DNA of 64,000 nt from Spirochaetia bacterium (GCA_965226055.1 CBDDCA010000006.1:736001-800000), one strand, 5' to 3'. Shown: positions 23,473-34,601, counted from the stretch's first letter. Notes: generated by a model not told the origin, from the letters alone. Numbers and translations: made by a program.

Positions 23473-26397
23473 ATGTCAGATAAAAAAAATACTTTTGTAG
23501 ATGTAGCAGAGGAAATATCTCATTCTTTTGCAGAAAGGCATATAGGGGTACACGGTGATGATCGTAAGCACATGCTTGCGGCATTAGGGGTAGATTCTAT
23601 TGAACAGTTAATAGATCAAGTGCTTCCTGATAGCTTAAAAGATGCTACGCAGTTTGATTTTCCAAAAGCTGTATCAGAATATGCAGCACTTCAAAAATTA
23701 AAAAATATAGCTCAGAAAAATGTTGTAGTGAAATCTCTTATTGGACAGGGATATTATGATACTATTACGCCTGCTCCGATACTCCGAAATATTTTAGAGA
23801 ATCCTGGATGGTATACAGCGTATACTTCATATCAGTCTGAGATATCACAAGGTCGGCTTGAAGCACTTTTTAATTTTCAAACAATGATAAGTGATTTCAC
23901 AGGGTTATCGGTTGCAAATGCTTCATTGTTAGATGAATCTACTGCTCTTGCAGAAGCGGTGTTACTTGCATGCAGATATTCTAAAAAAGAGCGGGTTGTT
24001 GTTATAGAAGGTTTGCATGAACAGAATATGCAATTACTCTATACTCGTTTAGATAAACTGAACATACCTATTGAAATTGTATCGTTACAGGAATATGAAC
24101 AAGATACATTTCATCTAGCAGCCGATACGGCTGCTGTAGTAATGCAGTTGCCTACTACTGAGGGATTGGTATATGACATTTCTTTGTGTGTACAAAAAGC
24201 AAAGAAGCAAGAGGTTCTTTGCATAGCATCAATTGATCCATTATTGATGACTATTCTTGGTACTCCTGCACAGTGGGGAATTGATATTGTAGTGGGTTCA
24301 ACACAGCGTTTTGGGGTACCAATGGGCTATGGGGGACCACATGCTGCATTTTTAGCATGTGATGAAAAGTTCAGACGTTTGGTTCCTGGACGGCTTGTAG
24401 GACAATCGAAAGATGCTAAGGGACGTGTTGCGTATAGGCTTGCATTGCAAACAAGAGAGCAGCATATTCGTAGAGAGAAAGCAACATCAAATATATGTAC
24501 CTCCCAAGTGTTACTTGCTGTTATGGCTTCCATGTATGCAGTATATCATGGAGGAAAAGGGCTGCAACATATTACAAAGTATATTCATACATTAGCATGG
24601 TTGTTTTGGAATGTAGCAAAAAGACAAAAAAATAGTAAGGTGCTTTATGATACTTTTTTTGATACTATAACATGGTCTGTTCAAGAGAGTGCCCTTGCAC
24701 AGACACAACAGAAAGCTGCGTTACAGGCAGGGTATAACATACGATGTATAAATAAGACGACACTTTCTGTCTCATTTGATGAAGTATGTACTCTTGAGGA
24801 TGTAAAAGTTCTTTCACAAAATATATTTGATCTTTCATCGGAAGATATGAATATATTTGATATACTTTTACAAAAAAATCTTGGATCGTCAGTACCTTTG
24901 TCATTGCCAGCTCATATGTATCGAAATACTTCTTTGTTAAGTCAACCTATATTTAATGCATATCATACTGAAACAGAACTTATGCGCTATATGCGCTTTC
25001 TTATGGATAAAGATTTGGCTCTTGATAGATCTATGATACCGCTTGGTTCGTGTACTATGAAGCTGAATGCTGTATCTGAGCTTATGCCAGTTTCATGGCA
25101 AGAATTTTCTCATATGCACCCGTATGTGCCGTTAGATCAAACTGTTGGGTATCAAAATCTTATTACTCAAACAGAAAGTATGCTATGTAGCATCACTGGA
25201 TTTGATGCAGTGTCATTGCAACCAAATGCAGGAAGTCAAGGGGAATACGCAGGATTGCTTGCAATTAGTGCATATCATAGGAGTAATGGTGATATGCAAC
25301 GAAATATTTGTTTGATACCATCTTCGGCTCATGGCACTAACCCTGCAAGTGCAATTATGGTGGGAATGAAAGTAGTGGTAGTGCAGTGTGATGAGCAAGG
25401 GAATATTGATATTCAAGATTTACAAGCGAAAGCAGAGAAATATTCTGAGGTATTAGCGGCTTTGATGGTGACATATCCTTCCACCCATGGAGTATATGAA
25501 GAAAATATAAAGCATATATGTGATATTGTGCATACACATGGTGGACAAATATATATTGATGGGGCTAATCTTAATGCGCTTGTTGGCATAGTAACACTGA
25601 CTTCTTTAGGGGCAGATGCTGCACATATGAATCTTCATAAAACATTTGCTATTCCGCATGGAGGAGGAGGTCCAGGCATAGGACCTGTGGGAGTAAAGAA
25701 GCATCTTGTTCCTTTTTTGCCTGCTAATATGCTTGTACAAAAAAAGCCATATTCTGTAGGACCAGTGTCAGCTGCTCCGTGGGGATCAGCTTCAATACTT
25801 CCTATATCATGGATGTATATGACAATGATGGGAAAGGAGGGGCTACAGGAAGCAACAAAGGTTGCAGTATTAAATGCTAATTATGTGGTAAAAAGGCTGT
25901 CTAAGTATTATACTATTTTGTATACAGGAAAACACGGGAGAGTTGCACATGAGTGTATACTTGATACACGGCCTTTTAAGGAGAGTGCAAATGTTATGTC
26001 TACTGATATTGCAAAAAGGCTTATAGATTATGGGTTTCATGCTCCTACTATGTCCTGGCCTGTACAGAATACGCTTATGATAGAGCCTACAGAAAGTGAA
26101 TCGAAAGCTGAGCTGGATAGATTTTGTGATGCAATGATTAGTATTCGTGAAGAAATTCGAAACATAGAAAATGCTGTGTGGGCAAGAGATGATAATCCCC
26201 TTGTATGTGCTCCTCATTGTGCAGAAGATATATGCAGTGATAGCTGGGATCACAGTTATACAAGGCAAGAAGCAGCGTACCCGATACCTTCGCTCTACAA
26301 TAATAAGTATTGGCCTCCGCTCTCACGAGTAGACGATGCTTTTGGAGATAAAAATCTTATTTGCTCATGCCCTCCTATTGATGAGTACGAAGCATAA
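23473..26397 (+). CDS. gcvP: Glycine dehydrogenase (single-chain P protein)
   Basis: YQSEISQGRLEAL, TREQHIRREKATSNICT, LGSCTMKLN and HMNLHKTF motifs. Confidence 0.98.
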   Translation: MSDKKNTFVDVAEEISHSFAERHIGVHGDDRKHMLAALGVDSIEQLIDQVLPDSLKDATQFDFPKAVSEYAALQKLKNIAQKNVVVKSLIGQGYYDTITPAPILRNILENPGWYTAYTSYQSEISQGRLEALFNFQTMISDFTGLSVANASLLDESTALAEAVLLACRYSKKERVVVIEGLHEQNMQLLYTRLDKLNIPIEIVSLQEYEQDTFHLAADTAAVVMQLPTTEGLVYDISLCVQKAKKQEVLCIASIDPLLMTILGTPAQWGIDIVVGSTQRFGVPMGYGGPHAAFLACDEKFRRLVPGRLVGQSKDAKGRVAYRLALQTREQHIRREKATSNICTSQVLLAVMASMYAVYHGGKGLQHITKYIHTLAWLFWNVAKRQKNSKVLYDTFFDTITWSVQESALAQTQQKAALQAGYNIRCINKTTLSVSFDEVCTLEDVKVLSQNIFDLSSEDMNIFDILLQKNLGSSVPLSLPAHMYRNTSLLSQPIFNAYHTETELMRYMRFLMDKDLALDRSMIPLGSCTMKLNAVSELMPVSWQEFSHMHPYVPLDQTVGYQNLITQTESMLCSITGFDAVSLQPNAGSQGEYAGLLAISAYHRSNGDMQRNICLIPSSAHGTNPASAIMVGMKVVVVQCDEQGNIDIQDLQAKAEKYSEVLAALMVTYPSTHGVYEENIKHICDIVHTHGGQIYIDGANLNALVGIVTLTSLGADAAHMNLHKTFAIPHGGGGPGIGPVGVKKHLVPFLPANMLVQKKPYSVGPVSAAPWGSASILPISWMYMTMMGKEGLQEATKVAVLNANYVVKRLSKYYTILYTGKHGRVAHECILDTRPFKESANVMSTDIAKRLIDYGFHAPTMSWPVQNTLMIEPTESESKAELDRFCDAMISIREEIRNIENAVWARDDNPLVCAPHCAEDICSDSWDHSYTRQEAAYPIPSLYNNKYWPPLSRVDDAFGDKNLICSCPPIDEYEA

Positions 26398-26533
26398 AAG
26401 AATACGGCAATGGATGAGGAAAGTAGAAATTTAGATGAGAGGCTTATATCGTTTTACCGTGATATATTGTCTGTATTTGAGCGATATAATATCAATGGTC
26501 ATATAGAGTGGGAAGAATAAAGAGCATCTTTAA

Positions 26534-26941
26534 TTACTCAAGCGGTGATAATTTTGTATCTTTATCTTTGTAAAACTCTTTTACTTTCTCATTTACCCAA
26601 TCACTGTGTGTCCAGTCATGTAATTTTTTGAGTGTGTACCCTACTACTGCCAAATCGTCAAGCCATCCAACAAAAGGTATTGCATCTGGTATTAAATCAA
26701 AAGGAAATACTACATACCCTAACGCTGCAATGCAAAAAATCTTGCTTGTACTGTCAATATCAGGATGTTTCATTACAAAGTATAGTCGTACAAACGGCTC
26801 ACTTACTTTTCTTGGGAGTTTTTTTACTAATTTTTCAAACTTCCCTTCATCATAGTATTTTTCATATTTTTCGTGATTTTTCTCAAAATGATCTGTATGT
26901 TCTTTTTTCTTCTCTTCTGTGTATTCTTCTTCTTTATCCAT
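26534..26941 (-). CDS. YkvA/DUF1232 family membrane protein
   Basis: AALGYVVFPFDLIPDAIPFVGWLDD motif; start at MDKEEE. Confidence 0.9.
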   Translation of the reverse strand: MDKEEEYTEEKKKEHTDHFEKNHEKYEKYYDEGKFEKLVKKLPRKVSEPFVRLYFVMKHPDIDSTSKIFCIAALGYVVFPFDLIPDAIPFVGWLDDLAVVGYTLKKLHDWTHSDWVNEKVKEFYKDKDTKLSPLE

Positions 26942-26947
26942 AATAGT

Positions 26948-26977
26948 ATTATACTGGATGAGCATATGTGTTGTCAA
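26948..26977 (-). promoter_or_regulatory. Sigma70 promoter (TTGACA-18-TATAAT) of the DUF1232 gene, leaderless geometry
   Basis: Perfect hexamers; the -10 box ends 6 nt before ATG 26941. Confidence 0.75.
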
Positions 26978-27011
26978 TGTTTTTTTACTTTTTGAATGAT
27001 ATTTTTGACAA

Positions 27012-27739
27012 GGGGCTGACCCATTTAATGAAAATTAGACTAACCCAGCCTCCTGTACCCAATTATACAACACTTTATACATGTTTGTGATTGGTCTATA
27101 ATTAAACCGAAATTCACATTCTTTGAGATACAGCTCAAAATGGTTTTTCGGTATTCCATTGTATCTTCTCAGATGCCTCTTTGATTGATTCCAAAAATTC
27201 TCTATTCCATTTATATGATTTTGCTTGTGTGCAAATTCCTTTGCATGATTTATGCGATAGTGTTGAAAGTCTGATACATCCAATATATTATAACTCGGAG
27301 AGGTATCTGTATAGATAATACTCTGAGGAGCTACTTTTTTCTTTATGATACTATAGAGTGTGCAAGTTGTTGTATTACTTACTGTTAGTGCATGCACCAT
27401 AGCTATTTCTTTTATATAATCCAAACACTATTGTTTTTCCTCCTGCTCCTCTGCCTCGCTTTCCTTTTTGTTTTCCTCCAAAATAACTTTCATCTATTTC
27501 TATTTCCCCTGAAAGTGCTATTTCATATTCACTGAGCTTTTCTCTTATAATACACCGTAATTTATGATACCACGATATACTTGTTTTTTTATTTATTCCT
27601 AGAAGCAATGCTGCACTTCTTGCTGGTGTTCCTGCTACATAATGTTCTATTATTCTTTTTACTATGATATGTGATAATCTTGTTTTTCTCATGCCTATTC
27701 TTTTAGAATAGCCTTTTTTCTCTTATCTGGGTCAGCCCC
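27012..27739 (-). mobile_element. IS1595-family (IS1016 group) insertion sequence, 728 bp
   Basis: Terminal inverted repeats GGGGCTGACCC (27012-27022 and 27729-27739); 8-bp direct repeat TTTGACAA on both flanks (27004-27011 and 27740-27747). Confidence 0.93.
27035..27692 (-). pseudogene. IS1016-like DDE transposase, frameshifted near 27401
   Basis: ORF1 has EIEIDESYFGG...GKRGRGAGGK; ORF2 has IIYTD, INHAKEF, HINGIENFW and LYLKECEFRFN; one extra base between KRNS and MVH. Confidence 0.88.
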
Positions 27740-27740
27740 T

Positions 27741-27768
27741 TTGACAATATGTGGAAAGTCTGTATAAT
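27741..27768 (+). promoter_or_regulatory. Sigma70 promoter (TTGACA-16-TATAAT) of the first array gene
   Basis: Perfect hexamers; the -35 box lies within the IS target duplication. Confidence 0.75.
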
Positions 27769-27841
27769 TAAATAGGGAGTACTGTTTACTAATTTGCTTA
27801 AATGTAATCAGCTTCTTGAATTAAATACAGAGGAGGGTTTT

Positions 27842-28390
27842 ATGAGTAAACCTAAAAAAGAGATGTTATTGTTGGCTGTGCCTCCTAATTGTGGTAAAAC
27901 ATTCACGATTAATTTGCTATATAATAAATTGAAGCAATTTAATGAAAAAGAACAAGATACTTCTAAATGGAAGTATGATAAACTAGCTCCAAAATCTAAA
28001 GAAGAGTTTCAAAACATAGAGGATAAAAAATATGAAAATCAAGATGAAGAGGGAGATATTCAAGAAACAGTAAAAATCAATGGCATAACTATTGGTTTTG
28101 CTAGTGCAAGTGATGATCCTGATCTGATTGATGCGAATATGGAGTTTTTTGAAGAAAAGAAATGTAATATTTGTATTACAGCTTGTTCTTGTGATGGAAT
28201 ATTAGGTAAAAGACAAGGAAAATATCCAACAGAGAGCATACAAAAAATATTAAAATTTGCACAAAAACATGAATACTGTATCTCACCATTTGATTTCATG
28301 GGTATGGATAAAGAGCATGATAATGATTATTGTAACAACGAAAAAGCAAGAATGATGTTTGATAGATTAAAATATCTTTTATCCGTGTAA
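27842..28390 (+). CDS. Small P-loop NTPase-like hypothetical protein, array copy 1
   Basis: GAGGAGG RBS then ATG; VPPNCGKT Walker-A-like motif, INGITIGFAS, CITACSC. Confidence 0.85.
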   Translation: MSKPKKEMLLLAVPPNCGKTFTINLLYNKLKQFNEKEQDTSKWKYDKLAPKSKEEFQNIEDKKYENQDEEGDIQETVKINGITIGFASASDDPDLIDANMEFFEEKKCNICITACSCDGILGKRQGKYPTESIQKILKFAQKHEYCISPFDFMGMDKEHDNDYCNNEKARMMFDRLKYLLSV

Positions 28391-28584
28391 AGTCTAATCA
28401 GTATCCGAGAACAGTAAAGGAAAAATAAAAAACTCCATTTTTGCAAAAATTCTGCACTATATTCTTATATCTTTGATACGGTAACACGAGACAGTGAAAG
28501 TACAGTATAATTAAATAGGAAGTATTGCTTACTAATTTGCTTAAATGTAATCAGCTTCTTGAATTAAATACAGAGGAGGGTTTT

Positions 28585-29127
28585 ATGAGTAACCCTAAAA
28601 AAGAGATGTTATTGTTGGCAGCGCGTGATAGAAGTGGGAAAACATTCACGATTAATTTGCTATATCATAAATGTATGCAATTTAAACAAGATATGTCCAT
28701 ATCAGATTATGATAAACTAGCTCCAAAATCTAAAGAAGAGTTTCAAAAAATAAAGAATGCAGAGTATAAAAATCAAGATGAAGATGGAGATATTCAAGAA
28801 ACAGTAGAAATTAATGGCATAACTATTGGTTTTGCTAGTAAAGGTGATTATCCTAATGATATTAAAAAGAATATTAAGTTTTTTAAAGAAAATGGATGTG
28901 ATATTTGTATTACAGCTTGTTCTTGCCTTGGAATAATAGGTAAAGGACGAGGAAGGAAAAAAGAGATGATACAAAAAATATGGGATTTTAAGGAAAAACA
29001 TAAATACTGTATCTCACAATTTGATTTCACAGGTGTGGAATATCATGATGATGAGTATTGTTACGACACTAACAACGAAAAAGCAAGAATGATGTTTGAT
29101 AGATTAAAATATCTTTTATCCGTGTAA
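28585..29127 (+). CDS. Small P-loop NTPase-like hypothetical protein, array copy 2
   Basis: Same RBS; ARDRSGKT motif; paralog of copy 1. Confidence 0.85.
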   Translation: MSNPKKEMLLLAARDRSGKTFTINLLYHKCMQFKQDMSISDYDKLAPKSKEEFQKIKNAEYKNQDEDGDIQETVEINGITIGFASKGDYPNDIKKNIKFFKENGCDICITACSCLGIIGKGRGRKKEMIQKIWDFKEKHKYCISQFDFTGVEYHDDEYCYDTNNEKARMMFDRLKYLLSV

Positions 29128-29321
29128 AGTCTAATCAGTATCCGAGAACAGTAAAGGAAAAATAAAAAACTCCATTTTTGCAAAAATTCTGCACTATATT
29201 CTTATATCTTTGATACGGTAACACGAGACAGTGAAAGTACAGTATAATTAAATAGGAAGTATTGTTTGCTAATTTGCTTAACTGTAATCAGCTTCTTGAA
29301 TTAAATACAGAGGAGGGTTTT

Positions 29322-29867
29322 ATGAGTAAACCTAAAAAAGAGATGTTATTGTTGGCTGTGCCTTCTAATTGTGGTAAAACATTCACGATTAATTTGCTAT
29401 ATAATAAATTGAAGCAATTTAATGAAAAAGAACAAGATACTTCTAAATGGAAGTATGATAAACTAGCTCCAAAATCTAAAGAAGAGTTTCAAAAAATAAA
29501 GGATGCAGAGTATGAAAATCAAGATGACTGGGGAGATATTCAAGAAACAGTAACAATCAATGGCATAACTATTGGTTTTGCTAGTGCAAGTGATGAACCT
29601 TATCTGATTGATGCGAATATGAAGTTTTTTGAAGAAAAGAAATGTGATATTTGTATTACAGCTTGTTCTTGCCTTGGAATATTAGGTACAGGACGAGGAA
29701 AGAAAAAAGAAATGATACAAAAAATAAGGGATTTTAAGGAAAAACATAAATACTGTATCTCACAATTTGATTTCATGGGTATGGATAAAGAGCATGATTT
29801 TGACTACTCTAACAACGAAAAAGCAAGAATGATGTTTGATAGATTAAAATATCTTTTATCCGTGTAA
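29322..29867 (+). CDS. Small P-loop NTPase-like hypothetical protein, array copy 3
   Basis: Same RBS; VPSNCGKT motif. Confidence 0.85.
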   Translation: MSKPKKEMLLLAVPSNCGKTFTINLLYNKLKQFNEKEQDTSKWKYDKLAPKSKEEFQKIKDAEYENQDDWGDIQETVTINGITIGFASASDEPYLIDANMKFFEEKKCDICITACSCLGILGTGRGKKKEMIQKIRDFKEKHKYCISQFDFMGMDKEHDFDYSNNEKARMMFDRLKYLLSV

Positions 29868-30060
29868 AGTCTAATCAGTATCCGAGAACAGTAAAGGAAA
29901 AATAAAAAACTCCATTTTTGCAAAAATTCTGCACTATATTCTTATATCTTTGATACGGTAACACGAGACAGTGAAAGTACAGTATAATTAAATAGGAAGT
30001 ATTGTTTGCTAATTTGCTTAAATGTAGTCAGCTTCTTGGATTAAATACAAATGAGGTTTT

Positions 30061-30573
30061 ATGGATAAATCTAAAAAAGAGATGTTGGTATTGGCTATGC
30101 CTCCTAAACATGGTAAAACATTCACGATTAAATTGTTATATGATAAATTAGAGCGATTTAATAGATCTGAAAAAGATATTTCTAACTTGAACTATGATAA
30201 TCTAAAACCAGAATACGGATCGGAAGAATTTCAAGAAATAAAGTATAAAAAACATGGTCGAAACAAAGAGATTCTAGAAGCAATAAAAATCAATGGCATA
30301 ACTATTGGTTTTGCTAGTGTAAGTGATACCTGGTATGAGATTAGAGATAATATGAAGTTTTTTGAAGAAAAGAAATGTAATATTTGTATTACAGCTTGTT
30401 CTTGTATGGGATTACTAAGAGATGGAAATAAACAAAAAATAATATTAGATTTTGTAAAAAAGCATAGATACGGTATTTCGATATTTAATTTTAGAGGTGT
30501 AGATGATTACTATCGTAACAACGAAAGAGCGAGAATAATGTTCGATAGATTAAAGTATCTTTTATCTGTGTAA
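30061..30573 (+). CDS. Small P-loop NTPase-like hypothetical protein, array copy 4 (most divergent)
   Basis: MPPKHGKT motif; shares INGITIGFAS, CITACSC and MFDRLKYLLSV. Confidence 0.85.
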   Translation: MDKSKKEMLVLAMPPKHGKTFTIKLLYDKLERFNRSEKDISNLNYDNLKPEYGSEEFQEIKYKKHGRNKEILEAIKINGITIGFASVSDTWYEIRDNMKFFEEKKCNICITACSCMGLLRDGNKQKIILDFVKKHRYGISIFNFRGVDDYYRNNERARIMFDRLKYLLSV

Positions 30574-30764
30574 ATTTTGATGAGAAAGCCAAACAGTAGA
30601 GGAAAAATAAAAAGCTCCATTATTGCAAAAATTTTGCAGTATATTCTTATATCTTTGATACGGCAACAAGATGGTAAAATTACAGTATAATTAAATAAGG
30701 GAGTATTGTTTATTAATTTGCTTAAATGTAATCAGCTTCTTGAGTAAATATAAAGGAAAGTTTT

Positions 30765-31304
30765 ATGAGTAAATCTAAAAAAGAGATATTATTATTGGCT
30801 GTGCCTGCTAACAGTGGTAAAACATTCACGATTAATTTGTTATATAATAAATGGATGAAATTTAAACAAGATATGTCCATATCAGATTATGATAAACTAG
30901 AACCAAAATCTAAAGAAGCGTTTCAAAAAATAAAGAATGCAGAGTATAAAAATCAAGATAAAGATGGAGATATTCAAGAAACAGTAGAAATTAATGGCAT
31001 AACTATTGGTTTTGCTAGTAAAGGTGATGAACCTGATGCTATTCGAAAGAATATTAAATTTTTTAAAGAAAATAAATGTGGTATTTGTATTACAGCTTGT
31101 TCTTGTGATGGAATATTAGATAAAAGACAAGGGAAAGATACAAAAGAGCGTGTACAAAAAATATTAGATTTTGAAGAAAAACACAAATACTGTATCTCAA
31201 CATTTGATTTCATGAGTGTGGATGAAGAGCATGACAATGACTACTGTAACAATGAAAAAGCAAGAATGATGTTTGATAGATTAAAGTATCTTTTGTCCGT
31301 GTAA
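30765..31304 (+). CDS. Small P-loop NTPase-like hypothetical protein, array copy 5
   Basis: VPANSGKT motif; paralog of the other copies. Confidence 0.85.
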   Translation: MSKSKKEILLLAVPANSGKTFTINLLYNKWMKFKQDMSISDYDKLEPKSKEAFQKIKNAEYKNQDKDGDIQETVEINGITIGFASKGDEPDAIRKNIKFFKENKCGICITACSCDGILDKRQGKDTKERVQKILDFEEKHKYCISTFDFMSVDEEHDNDYCNNEKARMMFDRLKYLLSV

Positions 31305-31435
31305 ATTTTGATAAGAAAGCCAAACAGTAAGAGGAAAAATAAAAAATTCCATAGTTTAAATATATTTGCACTATAGTATTGTATGCTTATATAGACAACG
31401 AGATAGTAAAACTCCAAAAAAATCCTTATTTTTGC

Positions 31436-31465
31436 TTGACATAGCATAAACAAACACAATATAAT
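31436..31465 (+). promoter_or_regulatory. rplM-rpsI promoter (TTGACA-18-TATAAT)
   Basis: Perfect hexamers about 70 nt upstream of rplM. Confidence 0.75.
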
Positions 31466-31534
31466 ATATTCCATAGTGGAGACTTATGTTTAATGATATA
31501 GGTACACTAAATAGTAGATACAAGGTACAAGGAT

Positions 31535-31978
31535 ATGCTAGACCAAAAAACTATATTTATTCCCCCAAGCAAAGTAGTGCGTAAGTGGTATCTCATTGAT
31601 GCGAAAGATAAAGTATTGGGAAAAGTAGCAGTGGAAATTGCTCGATTAGTACGTGGAAAACACAAAGCTGAGTTTACTCCTCACCAAGAGATTGGTGATT
31701 ATGTGGTAGTTATCAATGCAGACAAGGTAAAGCTCACTGGTAACAAAGAAACACAGAAAATGTATCACCGACATAGTGGGTATCCCGGTTCTCTGAAATC
31801 AGAGAATTATAAAAGATTGAACGATAGAAAGCCTGGCTATCCCTTAGAGCTAGCAATTAAACGCATGTTGCCAAAAAATAAACTTGGCAATAAACTGTTT
31901 ACTAATGTTAAGGTATATGCAGGAGAGCCTAATCCTCTCCCTCATATAGCACAGAAACCAGAAAAATACGAGGTATAA
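31535..31978 (+). CDS. rplM: 50S ribosomal protein L13
   Basis: WYLIDA, LVRGKHK..FTPH..GDYVVVINA and HSGYPG motifs. Confidence 0.98.
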   Translation: MLDQKTIFIPPSKVVRKWYLIDAKDKVLGKVAVEIARLVRGKHKAEFTPHQEIGDYVVVINADKVKLTGNKETQKMYHRHSGYPGSLKSENYKRLNDRKPGYPLELAIKRMLPKNKLGNKLFTNVKVYAGEPNPLPHIAQKPEKYEV

Positions 31979-31979
31979 T

Positions 31980-32375
31980 ATGGAACAGAGTTCTTTTGGT
32001 GCAGTAGGAAAACGAAAGACATCAGTAGCAAGAATATATTTACGAAAAGGTACTGGAAATATAAAGATAAACAAAAATCGTAATATACAAGACTACTTAA
32101 AAAAACAAGAGCTTATTGACAAAGCACTTTTGCCACTATCAGTTACAAAACAAAAATCTCATTGGGATGTAATAATCAATGTATATGGCGGTGGTACTAC
32201 GGGGCAAGCAGGAGCAATTGCTCACGGCATTGCTCGTTCACTCTTAAAAAGTGATGAAGAGTTGCGTCATACGCTTAAACAGCATAGTTTACTCACGCGT
32301 GATTCAAGAATGGTAGAAAGAAAAAAATATGGACGTCGTGGAGCAAGACGATCTTTTCAGTTCTCTAAACGTTAG
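31980..32375 (+). CDS. rpsI: 30S ribosomal protein S9
   Basis: GKRKTSVAR, GGGTTGQAGAI and TRDSRMVERKKYG...QFSKR motifs. Confidence 0.98.
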   Translation: MEQSSFGAVGKRKTSVARIYLRKGTGNIKINKNRNIQDYLKKQELIDKALLPLSVTKQKSHWDVIINVYGGGTTGQAGAIAHGIARSLLKSDEELRHTLKQHSLLTRDSRMVERKKYGRRGARRSFQFSKR

Positions 32376-32380
32376 TATAT

Positions 32381-32938
32381 ATTTTACAGAATAATCTCCC
32401 AGAACAACAAGAATTACTGCATGGTGCATTTACAAAAGCACTCCGTTTACTATCTAAAAAAGGTTACGCTACACGAGCATTAGCACTAAAATTACTTGAA
32501 CACTATCCTCAAGGCATAGTAGAGGGAGTTATCTCACAACTACAACAAGAAAAGTATCTTGATGATAGTACTCTCTGTTATCAGTTTGCACAGTTTTTTC
32601 TTGATACAAAACCGCATAGTAAAGCACGGCTTGTACAAAAACTTGCTATACGAAAGTTTGAAGCATCCTGTATTGCCAATAGTCTCATACAACTAGAAGA
32701 AGAATTTTTACAGCATCAGTTTACTCCACATTACTGCATGGTATTTGAACATACATGTATACAGATAGAAAGGATTGATTTGTGGAGCTTCATTACTATG
32801 GTAGCGTTGTATCAACAGTATCAAAAAAATACAAAGCATGCATACGTAACATTGAAATCTCGTCTTGTATTACAAGGCTTTGTGTATATGCATATTGAAA
32901 CTGCACAGCAACAATTACTACAGCACAGCCTCATATAA
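32381..32938 (+). CDS. recX: RecX-like regulatory protein; no canonical start codon (ATT 32381 or CTG 32417 proposed)
   Basis: Open frame from 32369: ...AFTKALRLLSKK...LKL...VISQLQQEKYLDD...FA...RLVQKLAIRKF...RLVLQGF; the ORF track captured only the last 66 aa. Confidence 0.65.
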   Translation: MLQNNLPEQQELLHGAFTKALRLLSKKGYATRALALKLLEHYPQGIVEGVISQLQQEKYLDDSTLCYQFAQFFLDTKPHSKARLVQKLAIRKFEASCIANSLIQLEEEFLQHQFTPHYCMVFEHTCIQIERIDLWSFITMVALYQQYQKNTKHAYVTLKSRLVLQGFVYMHIETAQQQLLQHSLI

Positions 32939-32980
32939 AACTAATATGATAGTAGCGATAAGAGAAGAACAAAAGAGTAG

Positions 32981-33232
32981 CTATGATGCCTTGTTACTGT
33001 TTTCTTTTAATTTCTCTTTTAGTTTTTCCTCTTGTTCTTTTGCTGCTTTAGCATCGTATATGTCTGCTATACTAATGATGATGAAAAACAAAGCAAGTGA
33101 CATAAGAAATAAAGGGAGTACCCCTTGTATCACAAATAAAAATGCTTCTGTCCATCCTAATGCCCAATCAAAAGGCAATACCATATACAAAGAGACAATG
33201 AGAAGAATAATTCCAAGCAATATACCAGCCAT
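32981..33232 (-). CDS. Small two-TM membrane protein with charged C-terminal tail
   Basis: 83 aa from MAGILLG; TGCTACTAT 6 nt upstream. Confidence 0.7.
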   Translation of the reverse strand: MAGILLGIILLIVSLYMVLPFDWALGWTEAFLFVIQGVLPLFLMSLALFFIIISIADIYDAKAAKEQEEKLKEKLKENSNKAS

Positions 33233-33329
33233 AAGTATATAGTAGCATAGAAAATATTCCCTGTATAGTATGGCTAGTATACTGTTGCTTTTTACTGTAA
33301 GACAATTTATAGTGTGATAATTCCTTTTG

Positions 33330-34601
33330 CTAATGCTCAAAAAGAGTGCTATGTAATTGTATGAGGGCTTTTTGGAGATCTTGTTCAGCAATAATAATAC
33401 TAAGATTGCTTCCTGTTTGCCCTAAAGAGATAGTATTGATAGCAACAGTGTGTAGCGATTGTAGTATGTCGCCTGTTTTTGTAGGAGTAGTCCAACAATC
33501 TTTTCCAATAAGACTGATAATAGCTCGGTGTGTTTGGTAGAGTACTTCTCCTAGTTTTTTGAGTGATGTAACAAAAGAAGTGCTGAAATAGCTCTTATGA
33601 AATGTCATTGTTACTGATATTTCCGATGTTGTGAGAGTTTCTATTGATACTTTATGTTGATGACATATTGCAAAGATTTTTTCTAAATACCCATGTTGAT
33701 GAAACATATCGGCAGATCGTAATGTGAGTATGATAAAGTCTTTGCGATGGGTAATGGTAATGCAAGTAGTACTGTTGATTTTTGCTTGGTTGTGGATAGT
33801 AGTGATAGGAGCTTGGGAATGAAGAGAATGTATCATAATAGGGATATTGTGTTGAGAGAGTTCATATAGGGCACTAGGATGAAAAAATTTTCCTCCCAGA
33901 TACGATATTTCTAAGGCAGTGGTATAATCAAGTTCTTTTACTGTTTTTGCTTGTGAAATGATAGTAGGATCAGCAGTTTGTATTCCCATGAGGTTGTTCC
34001 AAATGGCTACTTTTTTTGCCTTATATTTTTTAGCAAGACGGGTAGCTACAAAATCTATAGTATGGGGAATATTTTCTATAGGTATGATGCATATAGGAGT
34101 GTGCTGTAATGTTTTCGATACAGATAACACATTGCTAATAGCACAGTGAAGCATAGGATACCTATTTTGTAGCATGGTAACTATAAGTACTGATGCTATA
34201 TGTGATGCTATTTTTAATAAAGAGGAGAATGTTTTTGCACTTATTTCTTTTACTGCACAGATTCCATGTAAAAGAGAAAGTATATCATTACAATCAGAAT
34301 GAAATGCATGGAGTACTTGTTTTTGTTGTGTTTCATCAGTAAACACATTTTGTATAGTGAGTGATATTATTCTTTTGAATTTTGAAAACTCATCTTCAAT
34401 ATATGCACGTGGCTTTGTAAGTGCTTGTGTGGCAAGTTGTTGTAAAGGTTCATGAGAACGCATATAACTTCCATTTAAGACAATAATATGAGAGTCTGGG
34501 CTATGATGTGCATGTTTCCATATTACTGTGCATATGTCTACAAGGTTATTTTTCTTTTCAAAATAAGTAGTGTCAAATACTAGTATAGATTTTGTATGCA
34601 T
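33330..34601 (-). CDS. lysC: Aspartate kinase-like protein with two ACT domains; catalytic motifs degenerate
   Basis: GIQTADP, ALEISYLGGKFFHP and ACT region (GYLEKIF...TSEISVTMT); directly downstream of asd. Confidence 0.75.
   Translation of the reverse strand: MHTKSILVFDTTYFEKKNNLVDICTVIWKHAHHSPDSHIIVLNGSYMRSHEPLQQLATQALTKPRAYIEDEFSKFKRIISLTIQNVFTDETQQKQVLHAFHSDCNDILSLLHGICAVKEISAKTFSSLLKIASHIASVLIVTMLQNRYPMLHCAISNVLSVSKTLQHTPICIIPIENIPHTIDFVATRLAKKYKAKKVAIWNNLMGIQTADPTIISQAKTVKELDYTTALEISYLGGKFFHPSALYELSQHNIPIMIHSLHSQAPITTIHNQAKINSTTCITITHRKDFIILTLRSADMFHQHGYLEKIFAICHQHKVSIETLTTSEISVTMTFHKSYFSTSFVTSLKKLGEVLYQTHRAIISLIGKDCWTTPTKTGDILQSLHTVAINTISLGQTGSNLSIIIAEQDLQKALIQLHSTLFEH

Follow-up and report, generated by a model that had tools for sequence, protein, structure and literature searches.

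A mosaic tandem array of five small P-loop protein genes in a Spirochaetia bacterium and the unnamed family to which they belong

Segmental gene conversion is familiar in spirochaetes from the vls locus of Borrelia and tprK of Treponema, in which promoterless silent cassettes donate to one expressed surface-protein gene. Here, an array of five tandem genes for small P-loop proteins is described, which occupies positions 27842-31304 (+ strand) of a 64,000-nucleotide stretch of a Spirochaetia bacterium genome (GCA_965226055.1, CBDDCA010000006.1:736001-800000; the whole stretch is called the window). As in vls and tprK, homologous segments have been exchanged between tandem copies of the array; in contrast to them, all five copies possess their own TATAAT box and ribosome-binding site and carry no export signal. 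The hallmarks of programmed diversification systems, such as diversity-generating retroelements, invertase shufflons, and silent-cassette conversion, namely a nearby reverse transcriptase or site-specific recombinase, promoterless donors, and paired template and variable repeats, were not found at the array (ORFs and Pfam matches over 23473-34601), and its flanks contain no adjacent toxin gene or toxin cassette of the kind seen in toxin-antitoxin and polymorphic-toxin immunity arrays. As far as titles and the openings of abstracts describe them, the NLR clusters of plants and fungi resemble the array in their tandem P-loop paralogs, mosaic alleles, and copy-number change, with unequal crossing-over and gene conversion; however, they encode large multi-domain eukaryotic receptors with repeat-based recognition, whereas the proteins of the array are single-domain, about 180 amino acids (aa) long, and bacterial. 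Among the papers listed by a single literature query on tandem P-loop NTPase paralogs with gene conversion, none deals with bacteria as judged by titles and abstract openings, which supports no claim that the family is absent from print.

The array comprises five intact open reading frames (ORFs), which encode paralogs of 170-182 aa and each start with an ATG 3' of a GAGGAGG-type ribosome-binding site, namely copy 1 (c1; 27842-28390, 182 aa), c2 (28585-29127, 180 aa), c3 (29322-29867, 181 aa), c4 (30061-30573, 170 aa), and c5 (30765-31304, 179 aa), all on the + strand. The 2.25-Mb, six-contig genome has no further copies. The repeat unit measures 701-746 nt from start to start (about 737 bp), including a spacer of approximately 195 nt, and the full-length alignment of the five proteins has 86 invariant columns, with identities to c1 of 60-85%. 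The initial annotation had described five same-strand tandem paralogs built from two alternative N-halves (A and B) and two alternative C-modules (X and Y), and the ORFs, ribosome-binding sites, and module motifs proved to be as it stated: N-type A occurs in c1 and c3 and N-type B in c2 and c5, C-type X occurs in c1 and c5 and C-type Y in c2 and c3, while the shorter patches FQKIKxAEY and FMGMDKEHD are found in c2, c3, and c5 and in c1 and c3, respectively. Thus, c1 is A+X, c2 is B+Y, c5 is B+X, and c3 is an A+Y chimera; c4 is of a divergent type. The expectation of a cytoplasmic protein without a transmembrane segment was likewise borne out, because no hydrophobic segment is present (maximum 19-residue Kyte-Doolittle mean <=1.24). 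A genome of the same genus, from a sister species (G001), carries three orthologous copies at the same place beside rplM-rpsI, in the order g1a (B+Y), g1b (divergent), and g1c (B+X), which are the orthologs of c2, c4, and c5, respectively.

The mosaic is statistically real, and recombination among the copies has taken place at a conserved block. In sliding comparisons of DNA identity, c3 matches c1 at 98-100% over alignment columns 61-240 and is c1-like again over columns 541-600, whereas it matches c2 at 92-95% over columns 421-540; c2 and c5 are 88-98% identical in the N half and 65-83% identical in the C module. Among the 45 informative sites of c1, c2, c3, and c5, 27 of the first 28 group c1 with c3 against c2 with c5, the next 14 all group c2 with c3 against c1 with c5, and two of the last three revert to the first pattern. 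By coordinate, c3 is c1-like to about 29631, similar to c2 and g1a over about 29672-29764, and c1-like from about 29781, so the main exchange point lies between 29631/29639 and 29672. This interval spans 29648-29671 (+ strand), where the five genes share 24 identical nt encoding ICITACSC, in agreement with the switch at CITACSC that had been proposed by the initial annotation. The pairwise homoplasy index (PHI) test gave p<=0.0005, below all 2000 site permutations, for the five genes (58 informative sites), for c1, c2, c3, and c5, and for all eight genes when both species are combined. Furthermore, maximum likelihood yields different trees for the N part and for the C module, and each data set rejects the tree of the other in the approximately unbiased (AU) test (p=4e-8 and 0.013), so the two parts are not congruent. 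The N-part tree is (c1,c3) against ((c2,g1a)90,(c5,g1c)81)99 against (c4,g1b)100, with c1 and c3 as a separate A clade, and the C-module tree contains (c2,c3,g1a)97. The longest matching runs between pairs, uncorrected for the 28 pairs compared, are those of c2-c3 (p=0.0008), c3-g1a (p=0.0006), and c1-c4 (p=0.002). Since c3 carries five private sites and matches g1a at 26 consecutive polymorphic sites in columns 139-209 (the run with p=0.0006), it is not a simple join of c1 and c2 in their present form. The run shared by c1 and c4 lies around EEKKCNICITACSC and has p=0.056 after correction for the 28 pairs, and the DNA of the c1 patch FQNIEDKK resembles that of FQNIKDKK in g1b, of the divergent type, and not that of KIK(N/D)AE in the other copies.

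The comparison with the sister species reduces the number of exchanges that need to be assumed. Among 40 relatives of the window genome, G001 is the only one with the family, and the B+Y and B+X combinations are older than the split of the two species. Because G001 already possesses the BY, divergent, and BX copies, each paired with its ortholog in the window, only c3 (A+Y) requires an exchange; X is common to c1, c5, and g1c, and Y marks the lineage of c2 and g1a. When c3 is left out, the PHI signal disappears for c1, c2, c5, g1a, and g1c (p=0.36) and for c2, c5, g1a, and g1c (p=0.56), and it returns in weaker form (p=0.0065-0.02) when the divergent c4 and its ortholog are included without c3, which fits two short tracts in c1. 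Most of the mosaic signal therefore comes from one chimeric gene, c3. We read these results as at least one major exchange plus two or three short ones, which would explain the presence of all four module combinations. The initial description of the genes as reciprocal mosaics of interchangeable modules holds in that segments were exchanged at conserved blocks, but it reduces to one chimera and a few short tracts on an older three-gene array. The G001 array looks partly decayed: in g1b, alanine replaces the Walker glycine that precedes the lysine and the C-terminus is changed, whereas g1c has lost 21 internal residues. In G001, g1b and g1c are only 14 nt apart (L009 8720-9759), and the usual spacer of about 195 nt and the normal end of g1b are missing.

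From these data, the array is probably a lineage-specific tandem expansion of an unnamed P-loop family that evolves by ordinary duplication and homologous recombination between repeats. In this process, a gene for a small cytoplasmic protein would have been expanded in tandem to three copies in the sister species and five here, and gene conversion, unequal crossing-over, or both between the repeats of about 737 bp would reshuffle the copies. The invariant stretches, namely the leader with the first codons, INGITIGFAS, ICITACSC, and the last 17 codons with the spacer, could serve as exchange points. The chimera c3 may have arisen as a copy-1-like duplicate that received a tract from the copy 2 lineage, or by fusion after duplication of the copy 1-2 pair, and c1 may also have received short tracts from the divergent type. 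A real mosaic is not evidence of a special diversity-generating system, and nothing points to a dedicated mechanism: the term recombination-driven diversification locus, under which the genes had initially been annotated, finds no reverse transcriptase or site-specific recombinase nearby, and every unit has a TATAAT box and a ribosome-binding site. The array is instead regarded here as an expanded, motif-divergent case of a familiar phenomenon, in which tandem paralogs are homogenised and reshuffled by homologous recombination. If this plain reading is true, the locus offers a clean small example of tandem paralogs becoming mosaics, in which a single chimera with its exchange point in a 24-nt identical block gives the look of "all four module combinations".

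The proteins of the array belong to a family without a model at threshold in Pfam, NCBIfam, PADLOC, or PHROGs. In Pfam, the best matches of the five copies are to MMR_HSR1 (PF01926), at 13.8 bits for c1 and 12.7 bits for c3 against a gathering threshold of 21.9, with no match for c2, c4, and c5; NCBIfam, PHROGs, and PADLOC gave only sub-threshold P-loop or chance matches. In PADLOC-DB 2.0, the best of these are PtuA (E 3.6e-4) and GajA (E 3.5e-4), over the Walker A region, and the match of c3 to PtuA (E 8.5e-4) covers positions 26-91 of the 411-position model. A word-indexed search of 5.8 billion clusters found the proteins only in two spirochaete species and on a second contig, together with one 37%-identical protein, and a HMMER search of 1.84 billion representatives retrieved 699 proteins at E<=1e-3, including 33 at E<=1e-10, nearly all of which are 135-180 aa long. 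Their source names are only "hypothetical protein", and a scan of 40 relatives revealed no family-specific Pfam model, with two of the 40 passing the generic MMR_HSR1 (29.2 and 27.7 bits). The window copies match the family profile at E 1.5e-54 to 9.8e-48 over positions 1-153 of 154, a result that is partly circular because the seeds included the five; independently of the seeding, relatives at 23-41% identity align end to end. A search aimed at longer fused proteins gave one weak match, P0169 (563 aa, 9% of the query covered), which contains a metallo-beta-lactamase domain. One family member, P0029 (246 aa), carries in a single protein a duplication of the segment from after Walker A through the TRT motif (strand, GDD, helix, and ILVTxTRT).

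The family has a sharp signature. In 157 representatives, counted among the residues aligned at each position, the conserved residues are G13 (121/151), G18 (151/152), K19 (152/152), T or S at position 20 (151/152), G73 (155/157), D74 (157/157), C91 (144/157), A97 (145/156), R99 (133/156), T100 (115/155), G102 (127/154), and N137 (123/139). Members of 135-180 aa elsewhere (the P0025 gene of G084, P0009, P0013-P0017, and a gene of a Porphyromonas metagenome-assembled genome, L011 8001-8480) share with the array copies both length and motif order, that is, a strand with xxxxGK[TS], IGFASxGD, NxxFF, CxICITA..G, YxISxFDF, and NxEKAxMMxDRLxYL. In contrast to the array, they are not in tandem, and the array copies differ from them in having S-C for R-T, V/A/M for the first Walker glycine, and a longer charged insert after helix 1. 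All five window copies carry GKT after (M/I)L(L/V)LA, so that the Walker A core G-K-[ST] is present, whereas the first Walker A glycine is replaced by V, A, V, M, and V in c1-c5 (V/A/M/L across the eight array genes of the two species). After the CxIxITA strand, S-C-x-G replaces R-T-x-G in every one of the eight array genes, where the nearest relative outside the genus keeps CRTKG, and four of the eight have S in place of G73. The description as an uncharacterised NTP-binding protein is thus supported by the GK[ST] motif and by the lack of a model at threshold in the four collections, but is weakened by the missing glycine. Since the Walker A lysine and the family-invariant Asp are kept in the array genes, nucleotide binding may well be retained, and with the Arg-Thr pair and the first Walker glycine lost, the array copies may bind nucleotide or switch rather than hydrolyse it efficiently. 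The invariant Asp follows IGFASx(G/S), and the Walker B strand may be either IGFAS or ICITA.

By these motifs, the family is placed in the P-loop superfamily, without a name. In profile searches of the PDB, many P-loop proteins match at Walker A only; a match longer than 90 positions was obtained for a single family, SRP54/FtsY of the SIMIBI class (8-111 of 150; E 1.3e-4 to 4e-4). The family profile resembles SRP54/FtsY in the order of P-loop, strand ending in Asp, helix, and hydrophobic strand; however, the array proteins lack DTAGR (G3), [NT]KxD (G4), and an N or M domain, and gave no Pfam SRP54 match at E<=1. A SIMIBI-like core is therefore possible for the family, although the match is below what would establish homology past the shared P-loop. 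Two other assignments were considered and rejected. The stretch MSKPKKEMLLLAVPPNC was taken for a possible lipoprotein signal, but its Cys occurs in c1 and c3 only and the stretch is the strand before the P-loop; CxxCxxxCxC was taken for a possible Fe-S or metal site, but only its first Cys is family-wide (144/157), and the OorD match scores 16 bits where the cutoff is 93.

The family is rare and patchy, and tandem arrays were seen in this genus only. It was found in 17 of 400 other Spirochaetota genomes, with one match each, and in 4 of 400 other Bacteroidota genomes, with 1, 1, 1, and 2 (unlinked) matches. Viral contigs and JGI metagenome contigs, searched with an alignment of ten family sequences, yielded pattern matches but no relative, and phage and plasmid records gave no match by tblastn (P0013 against both collections, c3 against plasmids only). 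Several relatives elsewhere lie in islands of defence or mobile genes. One is directly downstream of PD-Lambda-5 A/B (E 3e-128 and 1.6e-118), one is two genes upstream of GajA (E 4e-76), one has a radical-SAM gene on one side and an AbiLi-like ATPase on the other, accompanied by type I restriction genes, one is next to AbiEi/AbiEii with a Bro-N protein and a CI-type repressor, and an integrase adjoins another. In a Bacteroidota genome (G559; L044 847-1902), the family domain (C-terminal 140 residues, E 1.5e-27) is fused behind Abi_C (PF14355; 34 bits against a cutoff of 24), a HEPN-type abortive-infection domain, and the fusion is flanked by a Ppl-like ATPase and a type I restriction enzyme; the window copies share the family domain with this fusion but have neither a HEPN-type domain nor a type I restriction neighbour. 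At the GajA locus (L042 3582-7229 of G237, - strand), the family member matches weakly (E 2e-8), and after it, in the same orientation, come a 462-aa protein without a Pfam or PADLOC match and the GajA-like OLD nuclease, an arrangement that could be a Gabija variant with an unrecognised second gene.

These contexts raise the alternative that the array is a set of conflict sensors or regulators, directed against phages or mobile elements, in which recombination and fast change in two surface segments were selected for new specificities. The patchy distribution and the Abi_C fusion would suit such a role, as would ratios of nonsynonymous to synonymous substitution rates (dN/dS) of 1.0-1.46 among c1, c2, and c3 and the fact that 20 of the 26 differences found in the first copy of other sequencing runs are paralog bases (both are described below). 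However, when 9-kb windows around 16 family loci were compared with 15 control windows lying 40-100 kb away on the same contigs, the two groups were not separated: a PADLOC match at E<=1e-12 occurred in 8 of 16 family loci and 6 of 15 controls (p=0.72), named defence systems in 5 of 16 and 1 of 15 (p=0.17; this class was defined after the matches had been seen), and neighbour proteins with a PADLOC match numbered 16 of 92 and 9 of 101 (p=0.09). No neighbour gene is conserved among 11 Spirochaetota loci, the genes flanking the array are housekeeping genes, the window copies match PADLOC only at E 3.5e-4 or weaker over Walker A, no relative was met in the viral contigs and phage or plasmid records searched, the G001 copies show decay, and in no pair does pN/pS lie significantly above 1. 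A conflict set is accordingly unlikely here. The survey of homolog neighbourhoods that the initial annotation had called for thus yielded some defence contexts and the fusion, but no conserved partner and no significant enrichment, and its analogy to poly-immunity, antitoxin, or anti-phage arrays is not supported at this locus, which has housekeeping flanks and no toxin; the analogy rests on relatives elsewhere, whose defence neighbours are not above control. For the family as a whole, a conflict or defence role is only suggested, as a lead and not a finding. A more specific version, in which the array would supply nucleotide-binding specificity subunits lacking Arg-Thr, from an undescribed conflict-associated P-loop family that is coupled elsewhere to effectors (Abi_C/HEPN), with segment exchange and copy-number change selected for altered recognition of phage, mobile element, or host, is doubtful. 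The family is nevertheless the more useful by-product of the analysis, with about 700 representatives and the signature GK[TS], GD, C..ITA.RT.G, and N.EKA in the absence of a database model; together with the Abi_C fusion it is the part most worth following, and the array would provide a natural set of variants lacking the conserved Arg-Thr.

The selection analysis bears on both this alternative and a second one. Ortholog pairs have dN/dS of 0.42-0.55 and paralog pairs 0.50-1.46, with 1.39 for c1-c2, 1.46 for c2-c3, and 1.00 for c1-c3. Over codons 1-169, pN/pS ranges from 0.48 to 1.42; no paralog pair differs significantly from 1 (Fisher p 0.15-1.0), and the ortholog pair c2-g1a lies below 1 (p=0.041). 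Change is concentrated in two charged segments, at about residues 29-78 and 118-165, and the C-terminal helix-like tail is strictly conserved. In the C-terminal 17 codons, dN is 0 in 8 of 10 pairs with dS of up to 0.52, the exceptions being two pairs with c4, and summed over 21 non-independent pairs these codons show 48 synonymous differences at 186 sites and 11 non-synonymous differences at 831 sites. The last 17 codons are therefore under strong constraint. The proteins are kept and fast-evolving outside a few blocks, a pattern that fits both diversifying and relaxed selection. In the case of relaxed selection, the copies would be redundant duplicates drifting in a small genome bearing insertion sequence (IS) elements, with a non-adaptive mosaic and some copies heading to loss. 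Such drift would account for pN/pS values that are distinguishable from 1 only in c2-g1a, for the loss of the family Arg-Thr and the first Walker glycine in all eight array genes, and for lesions in two of the three G001 copies and a copy number of five against three between the species. It accords poorly with five intact frames in the window, each with a TATAAT box and a ribosome-binding site, with three blocks and the C-terminal 17 codons that stay invariant despite synonymous change, and with orthologs that have been kept since the species split, and it is judged quite improbable.

Variation between strains was followed in contigs of three sequencing runs (X5, X6, and X7) that are filed under three other organism labels and studies. 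Their first copy differs from c1 at 26 listed positions, and at 20 of these it has the base carried by a paralog at the homologous position, as continuing exchange would give; relaxed sites would also be enriched in such bases, so the count is suggestive only. The contigs of these runs do not cover 28410-29816 (c2 and c3), and no contig joins across; the protein clusters of c2 and c3 are single-member. From these two observations, a three-copy array in other strains is at most a conjecture. Near-identical variants exist in the protein collection for c1 and c5, as does an identical or near-identical c4 on a second contig of 25.6 kb. In each of X5, X6, and X7, one contig matches the window up to 30866, within c5, and continues with at least 255 letters unlike it, while further contigs from these runs pass through this position without a break, which could reflect either an alternative arrangement or an insertion carried by part of the population. 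That c3 or the five-copy order is an assembly artefact, made by a chimeric join of c1 and c2 reads, is extremely improbable, because, although long identical stretches are common to the units and none of the compared run contigs spans the array, c3 has private sites and Y-type patches that are in places closer to g1a than to c2, the array lies on a 957-kb contig of a six-contig assembly, and contigs of run X1, which may be the source sample, match parts of all five units without differences.

Some points weigh against the account of the array as an ordinary tandem expansion of a P-loop family. More than one order of events and more than one donor copy would fit the data, and the excess of paralog bases in the first copy of the other runs points to continuing exchange over a single old event. 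The five-copy order is that given by the assembly. Paralog dN/dS near or above 1 in intact frames could mean positive selection, with counts too small to separate the possibilities. Finally, the P-loop assignment draws on motifs and weak profile matches; Walker A lacks its first glycine, and the Walker B residue has only a predicted position.

The remaining features of the locus concern its expression signals and flanks. A sigma-70-type consensus promoter (TTGACA-16 nt-TATAAT, 12/12) lies upstream of c1 at 27741-27768 (+ strand) and begins at the first base past an IS element. The full consensus is found in the first unit only, and the TATAAT box, conserved leader, and ribosome-binding site in every unit; promoter-like matches as a class are not enriched (24 found against a shuffle mean of 28.6). 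The spacer between c1 and c2 (28391-28584, + strand) contains the TATAAT box, the conserved leader, and the GAGGAGG ribosome-binding site, and the spacers 3' of c1, c2, and c3 are nearly letter-for-letter identical. At the end of the array (31305-31534, + strand), homology to the inter-unit spacer persists for about the first 90 nt, a second consensus promoter lies at 31436-31465 (+ strand), and rplM starts at 31535. An Rfam scan of 26000-33000 at E<=0.1 gave no match, and a terminator scan gave no convincing terminator between the genes and one weak minus-strand site that is not above shuffles. Tandem Repeats Finder did not pick up the array, the unit of which exceeds its 500-nt period limit.

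By ORFs and Pfam matches over 23473-34601, the neighbours of the array are gcvP, a DUF1232 gene, an IS1595-family element, rplM-rpsI, and an amino-acid kinase, and no reverse transcriptase, site-specific recombinase, toxin, or defence gene flanks it. The IS1595-family element (27005-27740, - strand, 736 bp) lies outside the array, just upstream of its first promoter, and its transposase is split into two overlapping ORFs (27375-27692 and 27035-27424). The contigs of X5, X6, and X7 join 27004 directly to 27741 without the element (7 ambiguous bases) and are otherwise collinear in the flanks; since they skip 27005-27740, the element is an insertion in this genome. Where contigs of the three runs lie on the IS element, a base is missing at 27397, and the transposase may thereby regain a single frame. 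The same genome holds two other long relatives of the element, at 79-85% identity, plus short fragments. The DUF1232 protein (26534-26977, - strand, 147 aa, E 1.5e-13) is encoded between gcvP and the IS element by a gene with its own 12/12 consensus promoter at 26977-26948. Synteny with G001 is confined to the rplM side; where the window has gcvP and the DUF1232 gene upstream of the array, G001 has an ORF of 2466 aa that contains DUF285 and six or more fibronectin type III domains (L009 11513-18913, - strand).

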